Below are positions 1 through 4,073 of a stretch of 4,073 nucleotides of DNA, one piece after another. The translations under genes were made by a program, and so were the position numbers. The stretch lies in IMG/VR virus record IMGVR_UViG_2695420380_000014, positions 1 through 4,073 of that record; one strand, 5' to 3'. Source of the stretch: a virus. Lineage: Duplodnaviria > Heunggongvirae > Uroviricota > Caudoviricetes. The notes under the pieces were generated by a model. The model was not told the DNA's origin. It searched no databases and saw nothing but the letters and a program-made list of their open reading frames with translations. How positions within the stretch are numbered: the first letter of the stretch is position 1; each line of letters starts with the position of its first letter.

Positions 1-40
1 ACTGCGAGTGATGAATAAATGTCCCAGGTTCTTCACTCAG

Positions 41-70
41 GCCTGCACAGTGTGCAGGCTTTCTTTTTTT
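41..70 (+). terminator. Rho-independent terminator candidate for a plus-strand gene ending at or before position 18
   Basis: Near-perfect palindrome gcctgcaca-g-tgtgcaggc (41-59) followed on the plus strand by the T-rich run tttcttttttt (60-70). An open frame ends at TAA 16-18 (last codons T-A-S-D-E), about 22 nt upstream. On the minus strand the hairpin is not followed by a U-tract. Confidence 0.55.
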
Positions 71-195
71 CAGATTTCACCTACAACAGTGGCTTCATAA
101 CTGGTAATCATGTTTTTCTCCTTAATTAAGGTTGAGCGAACCCCTGCCATTGCTGGCATATAAGAATGAAACCGGATATTTATTACGGAACTGTT

Positions 196-387
196 TTAAA
201 GACCTGCCGGGATTTCGTTATTATCATGGTGAATAACTTTATCGACCGGATAACAGTCACCGGGAATTTTCTGTTTCGCTGCGGCAGTCATACATTCTTT
301 CATTGAGCTGTATACGCCAGTAACCATGTCAACCGGTTCACCGGAAACAAGAAAAACCGTCAGAACGAGTGCAAATACTGTATTCAT
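196..387 (-). CDS. Small hypothetical protein (63 aa) with hydrophobic N-terminal segment (signal peptide or membrane anchor) and two Cys
   Basis: ATG at 385-387 preceded by AAGGA with 8-nt spacing. The start overlaps the stop of the upstream ORF in an ATGA arrangement. Translation MNTVFALVLTVFLVSGEPVD... has an uncharged hydrophobic N-terminus, then a polar domain with Cys in KECM and GDCY. Stop TAA at 196-198. The frame is also open back to ATG 441, but that start has a poorly spaced SD. Confidence 0.5.
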   Translation of the reverse strand: MNTVFALVLTVFLVSGEPVDMVTGVYSSMKECMTAAAKQKIPGDCYPVDKVIHHDNNEIPAGL

Positions 388-572
388 TGTGCACATCCTT
401 TTGGCATCAGACGTAAACGAGCCAGCATTGAAACAATGCATATTTTATTTAATGACTCCCGTTCGTGTTTTCTCTTGTTAATGGCATCTTCAGTAAATAC
501 CGTGTTACTGATAGTGACACCAATTTCAAAACAACCTTCAGACGTATTAACGTTTGGTAATAACGTCTCCAT
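384..572 (-). CDS. Small hypothetical protein (62 aa), hydrophilic and basic, first gene of a two-gene coupled pair
   Basis: ATG 570-572 preceded by GAGGA about 8 nt upstream. It lies 10 nt downstream of the stop of the Rha 3' fragment. Stop TGA 384-386 overlaps the next ATG. No recognisable domain by eye. Confidence 0.45.
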   Translation of the reverse strand: METLLPNVNTSEGCFEIGVTISNTVFTEDAINKRKHERESLNKICIVSMLARLRLMPKGCAQ

Positions 573-582
573 TATTGCGTCC

Positions 583-678
583 TCAACAATGAATTTTGAG
601 TAATTGTTCCACAGTCATATTTTTAATTGCGCCCCGGTTAACAAGAGTCCATCCCTGTTCTTCCAGATAAAACCGGAA
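583..678 (-). pseudogene. Orphaned 3' end (31 codons) of a Rha-family phage regulatory gene, cut off from its 5' part by the IS1/IS3 block
   Basis: Minus-strand translation FRFYLEEQGWTLVNRGAIKNMTVEQLLKIHC* is in frame with, and nearly identical to, the C-terminal region of the Rha-like CDS at 2333-2917. The frame is broken at the IS1 left end (679/680). Confidence 0.7.
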
Positions 679-679
679 A
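599..679. repeat. 81-bp direct repeat, copy 1 (abuts IS1 left end)
   Basis: Read base by base against 2382-2462: identical except position 660 (c) versus 2443 (t). The next base (680 and 2463) is g in both copies, so the repeat could be counted as 82 bp. Confidence 0.9.
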
Positions 680-702
680 GGTGATGCTGCCAACTTACTG
701 AT
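680..702. repeat. IS1 left terminal inverted repeat (IRL)
   Basis: GGTGATGCTGCCAACTTACTGAT at the left boundary of the element; imperfect inverted match to 1425-1447. Confidence 0.9.
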
Positions 703-734
703 TTAGTGTATGATGGTGTTTTTGAGGTGCTCCA

Positions 735-1010
735 GTGGCTTCTGTTTCTATCAGCTGTCCCTCCTGTTCAGCTACTGACGGGGTGGTGCGTAACGGCAAA
801 AGCACTGCCGGACATCAGCGCTATCTCTGCTCTCACTGCCGTAAAACATGGCAACTGCAGTTCACTTACACCGCTTCTCAACCCGGTACGCACCAGAAAA
901 TCATTGATATGGCCATGAATGGCGTTGGATGCCGGGCAACTGCACGCATTATGGGCGTTGGCCTCAACACGATTTTACGTCACTTAAAAAACTCAGGCCG
1001 CAGTCGGTAA
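735..1010 (+). CDS. insA: IS1 InsA (transposition repressor / N-terminal part of InsAB' transposase), 91 aa
   Basis: Translation [43 protein letters not shown]...LKNSGRSR matches IS1 InsA as I recall it, including the zinc-finger-like CxxC...CxxC and the HTH region. Confidence 0.95.
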
Positions 1011-1432
1011 CCTCGCGCATACAGCCGGGCAGTGACGTCATCGTCTGCGCGGAAATGGACGAACAGTGGGGCTATGTCGGGGCTAAATCGCGCCAGCGCT
1101 GGCTGTTTTACGCGTATGACAGTCTCCGGAAGACGGTTGTTGCGCACGTATTCGGTGAACGCACTATGGCGACGCTGGGGCGTCTTATGAGCCTGCTGTC
1201 ACCCTTTGACGTGGTGATATGGATGACGGATGGCTGGCCGCTGTATGAATCCCGCCTGAAGGGAAAGCTGCACGTAATCAGCAAGCGATATACGCAGCGA
1301 ATTGAGCGGCATAACCTGAATCTGAGGCAGCACCTGGCACGGCTGGGACGGAAGTCGCTGTCGTTCTCAAAATCGGTGGAGCTGCATGACAAAGTCATCG
1401 GGCATTATCTGAACATAAAACACTATCAATAA
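929..1432 (+). CDS. insB: IS1 InsB frame (167 aa as conventionally annotated; expressed as InsAB' fusion by -1 frameshifting)
   Basis: Translation [53 protein letters not shown]...HYLNIKHYQ matches IS1 InsB. It overlaps the insA 3' end in the -1 frame. Confidence 0.95.
986..992 (+). other. IS1 programmed -1 ribosomal frameshift motif (AAAAAAC)
   Basis: A6C heptamer inside ttaaaaaactc near the end of insA, at the position where IS1 produces the InsAB' transposase. Confidence 0.8.
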
Positions 1433-1447
1433 GTTGGAGTCATTACC
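1425..1447. repeat. IS1 right terminal inverted repeat (IRR)
   Basis: ...ATCAATAAGTTGGAGTCATTACC; its reverse complement GGTAATGACTCCAACTTATTGAT is an imperfect match to the IRL. Confidence 0.9.
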
Positions 1448-2336
1448 ATTTTGCACAGGAGTCGCTGAAAAATACGCGTTAATCGAACAATGGCGACAAC
1501 AATTTCCCATTGAAGCGATGTGTCAGGTATTTGGTGTATCCAGGAGCGGTTATTACAACTGGGTACAGCATGAACCCTCAGACAGAAAACAAAGTGATGA
1601 GCGGCTAAAACTGGAGATTAAGGTGGCACATATCCGCACTCGCGAAACATATGGAACCCGGCGGCTCCAGACGGAGCTGGCAGAGAATGGCATCATCGTT
1701 GGTCGTGACCGACTGGCACGTCTTCGTAAGGAGCTAAGGCTACGCTGTAAGCAGAAACGCAAGTTCAGAGCGACTACGAACTCGAACCACAATCTGCCAG
1801 TTGCGCCAAATCTGCTGAACCAGACGTTCGCTCCTACAGCACCAAATCAGGTCTGGGTGGCGGACCTGACGTATGTTGCCACACAGGAGGGATGGTTGTA
1901 CCTCGCTGGCATCAAAGATGTTTATACGTGCGAAATTGTCGGCTACGCCATGGGAGAGCGCATGACAAAAGAGCTGACAGGTAAAGCCCTGTTTATGGCG
2001 CTCAGGAGCCAGCGCCCACCTGCCGGGCTAATCCACCACTCTGATCGAGGTTCACAGTACTGCGCATACGATTACCGGGTCATACAGGAGCAGTCTGGTC
2101 TGAAAACATCAATGTCGCGTAAAGGTAACTGTTACGACAACGCTCCGATGGAAAGCTTCTGGGGAACGCTGAAAAATGAGAGCCTGAGCCACTATCGTTT
2201 TAATAACCGGGATGAAGCCATCTCAGTAATACGGGAATACATTGAGATTTTCTACAATCGTCAGCGTCGTCACTCTCGTCTGGGGAATATCTCCCCGGCA
2301 GCCTTCAGGGAAAAATATCATCAGATGGCTGCTTAA
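1448..2336 (+). pseudogene. IS3-family transposase OrfB (DDE integrase catalytic domain), 5'-truncated, lacking orfA and the frameshift window
   Basis: Translation from 1448 (...AEKYALIEQWRQQFPIEAMCQVFGVSRSGYYNW...) parallels the N-terminus of IS3 InsF as recalled ([32 protein letters not shown]). DDE motifs are visible: VWVADLTY, HSDRGSQY, ESFWGTLKNE. The only in-window start for this frame is a TTG at 1434, which lies inside the IS1 IRR. Stop TAA at 2334-2336. Confidence 0.85.
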
Positions 2337-2379
2337 AAAAAGAACAAATGGTAGTGTCCGCTATTGCCAGTACACCTCA
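1448..2379 (+). mobile_element. IS3-family insertion sequence remnant (right part only: orfB plus right end); left end and orfA replaced by IS1
   Basis: Begins immediately after the IS1 IRR. Encodes an rve-type DDE transposase frame. After the orfB stop there are about 40 bp ending in ...CCTCA (2375-2379), consistent with the CA-3' terminus typical of IS3-family ends. The exact right boundary (2377-2381) is uncertain. No IS3-type left end or orfA is present in the window. Confidence 0.8.
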
Positions 2380-2917
2380 AAAGTAATTGTTCCACAGTCA
2401 TATTTTTAATTGCGCCCCGGTTAACAAGAGTCCATCCCTGTTTTTCCAGATAAAACCGGAAAGTCTCCAGGGTACAGACCAGTGCGCCATCAGGAACGGT
2501 TTCGGTGAATTCGACATTGCCGAATTTGTCGAAGTGAACAACCAGAGTGCGACCATCACCCGGAATCATCTTGTCAGCAGGTGGGGTGTTATTCTGGCGC
2601 AGTTCGGCCTCCATGCGGTCGAACTCAGCAATGTAGGCTTCTTTGAATGCAGCGGCTTTTTTGCCAGTGAAGCCCATAACCAGGAAAACGAAGCCGTTTT
2701 TGGTGATTTGGTACATTGGGAGTTTGCGCCCGATTGAGTCGGTGTATTCGCTCGCTTCAAAATTGAGGGCAGTAAATTTATCTGAGCATTCAATATTTGC
2801 GATGGCACGTAACACATTGTCGTGTCGTTTGTGGAAGAACTCTGCAACCGCAACAGACGTAGTGACAGCGCGACCGTTTTCTACGGTTACACAAGGGTGA
2901 GAAAGGGTAGTAGCCAT
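2333..2917 (-). CDS. Rha-family phage regulatory protein (Phage_pRha-like N-terminal domain), with its native C-terminal 4 residues replaced by a 15-residue tail read from the IS3-family end
   Basis: ATG 2915-2917 preceded by GGAGG with about 8-nt spacing. The N-terminal region ...CVTVENGRAVTTSVAVAEFFHKRHDNVLRAIANI... carries the FxKRHDNVLR motif I associate with Rha-family regulators. The frame runs into the IS end (...MTVEQLL|LRCTGNSGHYHLFFF*). The frame is also open upstream to ATG 3211 (see findings). Confidence 0.75.
   Translation of the reverse strand: MATTLSHPCVTVENGRAVTTSVAVAEFFHKRHDNVLRAIANIECSDKFTALNFEASEYTDSIGRKLPMYQITKNGFVFLVMGFTGKKAAAFKEAYIAEFDRMEAELRQNNTPPADKMIPGDGRTLVVHFDKFGNVEFTETVPDGALVCTLETFRFYLEKQGWTLVNRGAIKNMTVEQLLLRCTGNSGHYHLFFF
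2382..2462. repeat. 81-bp direct repeat, copy 2 (abuts IS3-family right end; part of the Rha-like CDS)
   Basis: Identical to 599-679 except one base (2443 t versus 660 c). Confidence 0.9.
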
Positions 2918-3081
2918 GATGGCAGCCTCCGCGATGAATTTGATTAACTCACCACCGGAGGTAGCAATCTCATGGGTGGTGAGACGTACAGGGTTGCTAC
3001 AACCGGTCATCACGGAACCCGGCCAGTCTTGCGACTGCCCCGCACGCCCCACCATAATTTGAATGTGGCTGTGCATTACGC

Positions 3082-3106
3082 ATAAAAAAACCGCCTGAGC
3101 GCGGTT
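3082..3106 (-). terminator. Intrinsic terminator-like hairpin on the minus strand, upstream of the Rha start
   Basis: Minus-strand sequence aaccgc-gctcag-gcggtt (6-bp stem, 6-nt loop) followed by seven T (plus-strand A-run 3084-3090). It lies inside the stop-free region between ATG 3211 and ATG 2917. Confidence 0.5.
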
Positions 3107-3275
3107 ATGCGCCGTGAATGACTTCGGGGTAGCAATCCCGGCACCCGTTTTATGAGGTGCAGGTGCACTATAATTCCACCCGTTCTGGTTTTCAATAGCT
3201 ACATTCAACATTTTCTCTTTCCTTTCATCACCGAAGTGAACTTTGTTGATGCGGTGCCTGGTGCCTCCAGGTGAC

Positions 3276-3296
3276 GTTAACCAGTTAACAATTAAC
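3276..3296. promoter_or_regulatory. Cluster of three (G)TTAAC motifs; candidate operator or protein-binding site in the divergent intergenic region
   Basis: GTTAAC-ca-GTTAAC-aa-TTAAC, with repeats starting at 3276, 3284 and 3292. Each GTTAAC is self-palindromic. It lies between the minus-strand Rha region and the plus-strand small gene. Confidence 0.3.
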
Positions 3297-3612
3297 GCCG
3301 GAATAAGGGATTTTCCTTACTGTTTTAACTGTTCCGCGTGCGCTGAGCCGCATTCACCGCATCACAAAATTCACTTTAAAAAGGGCGGACATCAGCCAGC
3401 AATTAAACCGATGCCGCCAACTGGTACTTCACACAGCAATGTCGTTATTTACAACCGGAGGCGCACTCCCACCATTTAAATTTAACAGACAAGACCGACT
3501 CTTTATGGATACCGGAAATGCGCCTTCGTGTTGTGCCCGGTTTTATTTCACCACCTCCGGGCTTTGGTGGTATCTTTACTGAAGTTCTCACACAACCAGT
3601 AAGGAAATGAAT

Positions 3613-3903
3613 ATGCCAACGTATCTCGCCAGAGTAGAACTATATAATGCTGAGCCAGAGGATTACGAAGGGCTTCATAAATATATGCTCTCACTAGGAT
3701 TCAGGAGAACGATCCCCCATGGAGATGGTTCGTATAATCAACTCCCGGACGGAACTTATGTTTCCGAAAAGGGCGGTGATATTTATCAAATTCGCAGCCA
3801 GATATCTGACTATGCAGACCGACTATCCAGGTATCGCGCGTCTGTTTTTGTTTGCGAATTCAGTCAATGCGCATGGTATTTATACCCCGCCAAGACCCGG
3901 TGA
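3613..3903 (+). CDS. Small hypothetical protein (96 aa), tentatively GhoS/DUF2622-like
   Basis: AAGGA at 3601-3605, 7 nt before ATG 3613 (the ATG at 3607 is too close to the SD). Translation MPTYLARVELYNAEPEDYEGLHKYMLSLGFRRTIPHGDGSYNQLPDGTYV... shows by eye a residue pattern (TY...Y....L...M....F...I....G...QL) resembling E. coli GhoS as I recall it. This is a memory-based resemblance only. Stop TGA 3901-3903. Confidence 0.5.
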   Translation: MPTYLARVELYNAEPEDYEGLHKYMLSLGFRRTIPHGDGSYNQLPDGTYVSEKGGDIYQIRSQISDYADRLSRYRASVFVCEFSQCAWYLYPAKTR

Positions 3904-4073
3904 ATATCCTGTACGGCCTTCTGCTTTGTAGAAGGCTTCTTCGCTATCATAATCGCCAGATTCCAGCGCTTCTTTAGCCAGCCAGATGCGTGCCCCAGTG
4001 CCTGCATTTGGCTCCAGTTGCTGGAGGCGTTTTGCATCTTCTAAATAGCTGCGCTTAATACCGCTACACTTTT
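3880..4073 (-). CDS. 3' end (64 codons) of a hypothetical protein gene that extends beyond the right edge of the window
   Basis: The minus-strand frame is open from the window edge to TAA at 3880-3882: ...KCSGIKRSYLEDAKRLQQLEPNAGTGARIWLAKEALESGDYDSEEAFYKAEGRTGYSPGLGGV*. It overlaps the 3' end of the plus-strand small gene by 24 bp. No family recognised. Confidence 0.45.
   Translation of the reverse strand, partial: KCSGIKRSYLEDAKRLQQLEPNAGTGARIWLAKEALESGDYDSEEAFYKAEGRTGYSPGLGGV

Follow-up and report, generated by a model that had tools for sequence, protein, structure and literature searches.

GhoS (YjdK) is the antitoxin of the type V toxin-antitoxin system GhoST of Escherichia coli; it belongs to the Pfam family PF11080, formerly DUF2622, and has a ferredoxin-like fold (Protein Data Bank (PDB) entry 2LLZ). 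A later paper by the GhoS authors describes Arg28 as the residue most important for its activity (PMC4010927). Two prophages of E. coli K-12 carry the other genes used here for comparison: ymfI in the e14 prophage, whose product has no known function, and sieB in the Rac prophage. In phage P22, sieB is described as an exclusion gene that the prophage expresses (PMC10883804). We analysed a gene that can be compared with each of these, located at positions 3613 to 3903 of a 4,073-nucleotide stretch of Caudoviricetes DNA (positions 1 to 4,073 of IMG/VR record IMGVR_UViG_2695420380_000014), which we call the window. A preliminary description had presented it as an orphan antitoxin-like gene. We found that this is the wrong frame: the gene belongs to the YmfI family and is carried as cargo in the sieB slot of a Rac-like prophage. 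We hold with high confidence that the gene is genuine, that its family and fold are as assigned, that it has no GhoT partner, that it fills this slot and that it overlaps a convergent gene. We favour, with less assurance, a reading in which it is an accessory gene that is probably expressed in the lysogen, and we put low confidence in an activity directed at RNA. The following features of the window carry the comparison.

3613 to 3903, plus strand: YmfI-family (phrog_8894) gene of 96 amino acids (aa), with a predicted GhoS/Cas2-like ferredoxin fold.
3880 to 4073, minus strand: convergent gene that continues past the window edge; the N-terminal half of e14 YmfJ is homologous to its product (phrog_30817, E = 3e-49).
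3601 to 3605, plus strand: Shine-Dalgarno (SD) sequence AAGGA, read from the sequence, 7 nt before the ATG at 3613; its position is kept in homologous leaders.
3585 to 3599, plus strand: conserved box TTCTCACACAACCAG, drawn from alignments, between the -10 element and the SD; the short-form counterpart of TTCCACAGTCAA.
3547 to 3576, plus strand: candidate sigma-70 promoter (-35 TTCACC at 3547-3552, 18-nt spacer, TG at 3568-3569, -10 TATCTT at 3571-3576).
3535 to 3562: helix A, GCCCGG at 3535-3540 with CCGGGC at 3557-3562, an inverted repeat with compensatory variants.
3550 to 3571: helix B, ACCACC at 3550-3555 with GGTGGT at 3566-3571, interleaved with helix A.

The open reading frame (ORF) list gives 3607-3903 (plus strand) as a frame of 98 aa. 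The likely start is its second ATG, at 3613, which yields the 96 aa described previously and agrees with the 94–96 aa of relatives. This frame exists, with its SD in place, and its coding status is supported by the ratio of nonsynonymous to synonymous substitution rates (dN/dS), which is 0.32 against a relative at 85% protein identity and 0.14 against one at 71%. In more distant relatives, synonymous sites are saturated while the proportion of nonsynonymous differences (pN) is 0.29–0.37, and the synonymous proportion far exceeds pN in every comparison. A profile built from six close relatives matched 938 clusters (50% identity) at E ≤ 1e-3, nearly all of them stand-alone proteins of 92–100 aa. 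Across 100 family members at 30–40% identity, R7 and Y18 are invariant and E9, L10, L21, H22, M25, P45, Y49 and W88 are near-invariant. We conclude that 3613-3903 truly encodes a protein, one of the YmfI/phrog_8894 phage family.

The window protein matches phrog_8894 in PHROGs over residues 3–96 (profile positions 1–93 of 94; E = 3.8e-38), and YmfI of e14 falls in the same family (E = 8.6e-40). The NCBIfam model YmfI_phage (NF051477) is matched at E = 4e-14. Because its score of 52.8 bits does not reach the 140-bit equivalog cut-off, we class the protein as a homologue of YmfI and not as an equivalog. The e14 gene shares with it a convergent overlap with a YmfJ-type gene and the short form of an upstream module described below (helix B, TGgTATGCT and the TTCTCACACA box); it differs in encoding 113 aa with an extra tail and in lying beside xis/int, not in a Rac-type early-left operon. 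Family members also occur in phages or islands of Pseudomonas, Burkholderia, Xenorhabdus and Acidobacteriota. A profile scan of the genome contigs for the family yielded only 3 loci.

The likeness to GhoS, which had been noted by eye, holds in part. The window protein itself has no match to PF11080 at E ≤ 1 (gathering threshold 21 bits; E. coli GhoS scores 138.8 bits), and direct Pfam, PDB-sequence and PADLOC searches with it returned nothing useful. Its relatives supply the connection: PF11080 is matched at E ≤ 0.1 by 47/100 family members (best E = 2.4e-8), and P0041, P0057, P0056 and P0029 rise above the gathering threshold with 27.2, 24.2, 22.5 and 22.2 bits. When the family profile was aligned with E. 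coli GhoS by hhalign, the match was weak and in register (E = 1e-3, 14% identity, the same identity as between GhoS and the window protein). The product thereby appears to be a distant homologue of Pfam GhoS/DUF2622 through relatives in its own family, and the data support calling it GhoS-like at the level of fold and superfamily, not as a member of the GhoS family. Many family members are named 'DUF2622' or 'type V toxin-antitoxin system endoribonuclease antitoxin GhoS' by NCBI and JGI; these antitoxin names are propagated by hidden Markov models (HMMs) and are not experimental. A search of the literature found nothing on DUF2622.

An AlphaFold2 model from a 96-sequence alignment (pLDDT 89.9, pTM 0.79) has the ferredoxin-like topology beta-alpha-beta-beta-beta-alpha-beta. 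GhoS 2LLZ is its top PDB fold match by two methods (Foldseek E = 1.2e-3, TM 0.62), which bears out the resemblance in structure, and the nearest solved relatives of the predicted fold are GhoS and then Cas2. The Cas2 proteins SSO8090 (3EXC) and SSO1404 (2IVY) and VapD are fold comparators at 9–15% identity to the window protein; their genetic context is absent at the window gene, where there is no CRISPR array, no cas1 and no vapX. In the hhalign register (probability 21.7%), the near-invariant His22 of the family stands opposite Arg28 in helix 1 of GhoS. Binding or cutting of a specific RNA would be the most likely activity, a tentative proposal drawn from the modelled fold and the polar residues R7, E9, Y18, H22 and Y49.

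The claim that no GhoT-like hydrophobic ORF follows the gene was borne out in the window and in 26 relatives. Within 700 nt of the gene, no ORF of 120 aa or less has a 19-residue hydropathy window of at least 2.0 (GhoT itself scores 2.6), and the same search at 26 other loci found none, or only scattered and inconsistent ones. The plus-strand ORFs that start downstream are 3986-4048 and 3990-4058, which have 20–22 codons and are not hydrophobic. In raw sequence, small hydrophobic peptides are encoded upstream of a few loci that have the long-form leader described below (L061, L066, L070 and L090), inconsistently across loci. The word 'orphan' does not fit, as the whole YmfI/phrog_8894 family is without GhoT and has a recurrent convergent-overlap architecture of its own, here in the sieB slot of Rac. 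Unlike ghoS, the window gene is phage-borne, reversed and overlapped by a convergent gene, with no ghoT downstream, and is not part of a two-gene operon.

As previously described, the 3′ end of the gene overlaps the convergent gene by 24 bp, the minus-strand ORF ending at 3880. The partner, which measures 70 aa in L001, a locus 95.9% identical over this region, also matches phrog_12693 (YmfJ) at E = 1e-17. Since the window partner is homologous to YmfJ over the latter's N-terminal half, we assign the locus as a ymfI/ymfJ-type pair; in e14 the two genes overlap by 63 bp. The family gene stands opposite to the surrounding phage operon in genomes of Salmonella, Citrobacter, Klebsiella, Kosakonia and Xenorhabdus and in about 65 IMG/VR contigs. 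A partner is present in nearly all of about 65 loci, and in about 60 the 3′ end of the family gene overlaps a convergent ORF of 51–149 aa by 4–44 bp. In the window and L016-L020 the pair is placed in the early-left operon, with the repressor/N side on one flank and kil/kilR/gam on the other; in L003-L009 it lies between antiterminator Q and holin, and in e14 beside xis/int.

The convergent partners comprise at least four unrelated N-terminal types, often ending in a Gly/Ser-rich tail, and for this reason we rejected the idea that the partner is a single conserved 'toxin'. Enterobacterial partners with unrelated N-termini share a C-terminal G-R-S/A/T-G-S... tail that is encoded just past the stop codon of the family gene. 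Partner proteins with the G-R-S/A/T-G tail are encoded at the following places.

L001 6681-6893, minus strand.
L016 5268-5516, minus strand.
L019 5268-5570, minus strand.
L003 6285-6506, minus strand.
L006 6282-6491, minus strand.
L008 6285-6524, minus strand.

The Arg codon of the tail varies by locus (CGT, CGC, CGA, CGG or AGA), and this difference suggests that selection acts on the peptide rather than on the DNA. L019 also has a second convergent pair, unrelated to the family, at 4239-4532 (plus strand) and 4513-4782 (minus strand), encoding 97 and 89 aa with a 20-bp overlap; it lies directly left of the family pair, and the two look like tandem cargo cassettes. In Pseudomonas (L013-L015, 4001-4288), a family member stands in a chromosomal island after a same-strand gene of 279 aa; its neighbours include a large AAA_15/AAA_21 ATPase, AlpA/PyocinActivator and DUF3987, an environment like that of a defence island, and at L013-L015 no partner on the opposite strand was called.

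The slot is defined by comparison with the Rac prophage of K-12, where the order is kilR(-), kilS small RNA(-), sieB(+), ydaF(-), ydaG(-), racR(-). There, sieB has the position and orientation of the window gene, from the kilS/kilR side to ydaF, and overlaps the next, convergent gene, by 4 bp (sieB/ydaF). The DNA upstream of K-12 sieB matches window 3372-3571 at almost every base, helices A and B included, and diverges directly after the GGTGGT that forms the 3′ arm of helix B. The products differ: SieB has 162 aa, and the window protein has no Pfam SieB match. The same upstream stretch recurs in other E. coli prophages, with 85% identity over window 3212-3617, and leads there to a hypothetical gene of 59 aa or 77 aa. 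Because the shared upstream DNA is followed elsewhere by sieB or by these genes, we place the target gene in an interchangeable cargo slot, of which sieB is another cargo. Literature on KilS or on a sieB promoter was not found.

The leader had been described as carrying three nested inverted repeats that could form alternative stem-loops. All three are present (the third pairs GATACC at 3508-3513 with GGTATC at 3569-3574), and the ACCACC/GGTGGT coordinates had been off by one base. In this sequence alone, a structured leader is not supported: 3500-3625 folds at -29.5 kcal/mol against -28.0 ± 3.3 kcal/mol in shuffles (z = -0.44), the reverse strand is no better, and the repeats are only 6-mers, not beyond chance. 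Across relatives, the first two pairs are kept with compensatory changes in 21 leaders and the third is not conserved; L001 carries an uncompensated G>A in it. Upstream of family genes whose proteins are 31–50% identical, the layout is the 5′ arm of A, a T-rich loop, the 5′ arm of B, the 3′ arm of A and the 3′ arm of B. Helix A occurs as GCCTG/CAGGC, GCCGGG/CCCGGC, GCCCGG/CCGGGC, GCTGGG/CCCAGC and GCCTT/AAGGC, and helix B as CCAC/GTGG, CCAT/ATGG, TCAC/GTGA, CCCTC/GAGGG, CCCTG/CAGGG and CAGGG/CCCTG.

We measured covariation on the 21 distinct leaders, for which we picked out the homologous arms manually and connected them with dummy TATATA linkers. Pairing occurs in 86.7% of cells versus 70.8% in shuffles, both sides have changed in 11/14 pairs (helix A 4/7, helix B 7/7) versus a shuffle mean of 5.6, and the covariation score is 0.387 versus 0.126, with 0/500 shuffles reaching the observed value in each case; the arms were picked with pairing in view, which leans the alignment toward structure, and the sequences are interrelated. 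Sliding the 3′ partners by 1–3 columns lowered pairing to 32–47%. RNAalifold on a plain MAFFT alignment of the leaders recovered only 3 pairs, as differences in loop length displace the columns. The four arms adjoin one another: B5′ and A3′ are 0–2 nt apart, as are A3′ and B3′, and because of this helices A and B are probably alternatives rather than simultaneous or a compact pseudoknot. A linker of 0–2 nt is too short to span helix A in an H-type pseudoknot, which makes that candidate unlikely. A strand call from G-U versus A-C pairs (9 plus-sense wobbles versus 0) was not relied on, since most are at weakly conserved outer positions. The proposal of alternative stem-loops therefore stands for the two interleaved pairs, which are evolutionarily real, and falls for the third. 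Rfam 15 contains no family for window 3500-3612 on either strand, nor for the long-form leaders of L020, L051, L065 and L094.

These helices occur in two forms of a wider module. In the long form there are two copies of the box TTCCACAGTCAA, one near -35 and one near +1. After the helices come, in order, CTTTCCACAGTCAA, an AAGGAA that resembles an SD, a -10-like hexamer, the second TTCCACAGTCAA and the real SD. The hexamer lies 17 nt after TTTCCA and never varies in its T, A and last T, as expected of a -10 element. In our reading of the alignments the second box can pair with the SD (TTCC/GGAA), and some leaders have TCTC/GAGA or ATCC/GGAT instead. A minus-strand intrinsic terminator is read 15–25 nt beyond helix A at long-form loci. 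A conserved upstream mini-ORF in the long-form leader was considered and rejected, its start and frame not being conserved. In the short form, which the window shares with e14 ymfI and two further E. coli cargo genes, helix B runs directly into TGgTAT(C/G/A)(T/C)T and a single box, TTCTCACACAnCCAG, follows. At the corresponding site, 27 long-form leaders all keep the T-A-n-n-n-T pattern, and in the short form TGgTATGCT or TGgTATACT stands there in e14 ymfI and the two further cargo genes; from this invariance and the short-form alignment we infer a promoter for the gene at 3547-3576. The candidate promoter coincides in part with helix B and has helix A on its upstream side, so the helices may be outside the 5′ untranslated region (UTR) of this gene's mRNA.

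The module is also not particular to this gene. We scanned IMG/VR for an exact 14-mer and analysed 120 loci among the matches listed. The double-box form occurs in at least 65 of these loci, 15 of which precede a family member and 50 other small ORFs. The latter make up at least 50 phage contigs (among L103-L222, found by CTTTCCACAGTCAA in IMG/VR) with the double-box module before non-family ORFs of 54–136 aa. Among the matches listed, the interleaved helices are kept in 32/39 distinct upstream regions, 24 of those 32 with non-family cargo. Eight cargo proteins were scanned, and seven match PHROGs of unknown function (25023, 17494, 4852/2945, 27767, 1244, 19636 and 9414) and one matches none. 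At the one non-family locus examined, L145, the cargo is likewise reversed and overlaps a convergent gene within an early-left operon. The stem-loops are best assigned to a conserved, cargo-independent control module. The earlier view of the leader as belonging to this gene does not hold, because the generic module also precedes sieB and dozens of unrelated small ORFs.

From these comparisons we propose, as the better supported account on balance, that the gene is an accessory ('moron') gene with its own sigma-70 promoter (-10 TATCTT at 3571-3576). Because this candidate promoter is its own and lies on the strand opposite to the early-left operon, the product would probably be made in the lysogen while the surrounding operon is repressed. 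Once the operon is derepressed, convergent transcription would run antisense through the gene. In K-12 after DNA damage, ymfJ rises by about 4–5 log2 late and ymfI by only 1–2 (PMC11002266), which fits separate control of the two strands. The protein would bind or cut a specific RNA, possibly with His22 in the place of GhoS Arg28, and would serve the prophage in exclusion or regulation, not by classical type V antitoxin action.

Several observations weigh against this account. The missing PF11080 match of the window protein is one; the hhalign probability between family and GhoS is only 21.7%, a profile search of the family by sequence misses 2LLZ, and the residue aligned to the catalytic R28 is His and not Arg. 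A search of PADLOC-DB 2.0 with the window protein, YmfI, YmfJ and three partner types found no family at E ≤ 0.1. The consensus promoter scan did not list the promoter at 3547-3576. Finally, PGAP leaves the intact ORF uncalled in genomes that are 95.9% identical across the region, and several database proteins (P0004, P0007, P0009 and P0011) are frameshifted or shortened versions of it; because frameshifted copies exist, the gene would be dispensable in some hosts. In complete E. coli genomes, the unannotated intact ORF is that of L001 (6408-6704), where the convergent neighbour is called a pseudogene. At least 80% of window 3212-4073 is present in 17/5,426 complete E. coli genomes, and part of it in 4,677.

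The missing PGAP calls and the frameshifted copies, together with the small-RNA-like features that adjoin the ORF on the minus strand, could also mean that the ORF is non-functional and that conserved DNA alone remains, as the antisense part of a minus-strand operon transcript toward the DicF/KilS-like RNA. We consider this scarcely credible in view of purifying selection at the protein level with saturated synonymous sites, a large family sharing a confident common fold, and residues that are invariant across 30–40% identity. A true type V antitoxin, orthologous to GhoS and cleaving the mRNA of a toxin that is encoded elsewhere or unrecognisable, would agree with GhoS as the top fold match and with the GhoS/DUF2622 names given by NCBI to many members. 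It is nonetheless very improbable: the gene has no adjacent GhoT-like ORF in the window or in 26 relatives, is monocistronic and reversed rather than the first of a two-gene operon, lacks a PF11080 match and belongs to a family that spans phages or islands of Pseudomonas, Burkholderia, Xenorhabdus and Acidobacteriota. We know of no ghoT in those settings. Its small size, its antitoxin-like fold and its place in a variable part of the phage genome might instead point to an anti-defence gene or 'antitoxin mimic' acting on host toxin-antitoxin or abortive-infection systems. We rate this as improbable too, since orientation and the candidate promoter suggest expression in the lysogen and not in early infection, no known defence system is matched, and the wide host range offers no common known target.

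A stronger rival, still unlikely, is a trans-acting 'guardian' RNase of type V logic that destroys leaky read-through of lethal downstream genes in the lysogen, its targets being kil, kilR, dicB or, at Q-side loci, the holin, in the operon that the gene interrupts. Its case is one of position: the holin is the next gene in the operon direction in 5/5 Q-to-lysis loci, KilR is next in L017 and L018, kil, kilR or dicB lies within a few genes in L002, L016 and L019, and the next gene in e14 encodes the two-transmembrane YmfH. The mRNA that GhoS attacks also encodes a small membrane-lytic protein (PMC4010927). Against this, such sites are general accessory-gene hot spots where adjacency may carry no meaning, unrelated cargo genes occupy the same slot, and the next gene in the window is a Rha/Ash antirepressor, not a killer. 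We give a similarly low chance to the joint proposition that the YmfI family is a GhoT-less phage branch of GhoS acting as such an RNase and that the upstream element is an undescribed cis-regulatory cassette, composed of two interleaved covarying helices plus a duplicated TTCCACAGTCAA box flanking a promoter.

The prophage context claimed for the window was confirmed: it is part of a Rac-like lambdoid prophage damaged by insertion sequences. The remaining features are as follows.

About 735 to 1432: IS1 genes.
1434 to 2336: IS3-family transposase fragment.
2333 to 3211, minus strand: Rha/Ash antirepressor gene, a 292-aa ORF.
3383 to 3433, minus strand: DicF-like small RNA with terminator; Rfam DicF at 28.6 bits, below the gathering threshold of 48, with the helix kept.

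The DicF-like RNA has a different 5′ seed and aligns with the K-12 Rac 'small RNA KilS' (b4833), with a terminator-like site at 3415-3388. It is part of the shared upstream backbone, which aligns to the K-12 kilS/sieB intergenic region. Beside it, a sub-threshold STnc100-like Rfam match (33.7 bits) covers 3242-3371 on the minus strand. Two Rfam matches on the minus strand are above gathering (GA), C4 antisense RNA at 2972-3059 (79 bits, GA 45) and isrK at 3084-3160 (64.8 bits, GA 50), and a weak c4 target a1/b1 match lies at 3121-3173. C4 and isrK stand just upstream of the antirepressor coding region. Both RNAs lie inside the 292-aa ORF of 2333-3211, and the antirepressor may therefore begin further along it; our guess is near 2916, where the ORF reads M-ATTLSH. 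The C4/isrK region looks like an antirepressor control unit of the P1/P7 immI type or the Gifsy isrK type in a Rac-like prophage.

An 82-nt direct repeat (599-680 and 2382-2463, 99% identity) brackets IS1 and the IS3-family transposase fragment, and both copies carry the antirepressor 3′ end. A target-site duplication is usually far shorter, and the repeat suggests that two copies with different interruptions have recombined. The module's box TTCCACAGTCA is found exactly on the plus strand at 607-617 and 2390-2400, inside the repeat, where it falls among the codons for the antirepressor C-terminus. By chance, a window would contain 0.06 such matches; we treat the pair as a single event.

The 'type V antitoxin GhoS' names are probably over-propagated across a large family (938 clusters at 50% identity), given that its members lack the toxin partner that defines the system. 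Slots of the kind filled by the window gene have often held defence or exclusion genes, and the module-driven small proteins of phrog_8894, 25023, 17494, 27767, 1244 and 19636 are candidates for study. The covarying interleaved helices, for which Rfam has no family, could be a new regulatory RNA or DNA element. If the cassette proposal is true, the cassette would mark a universal 'cargo slot' for lysogen-expressed genes of lambdoid phages, with sieB as one cargo, and if the RNase proposal is true, the family would represent type V antitoxin logic turned on the prophage's own killing genes (kil, kilR, dicB and holin).

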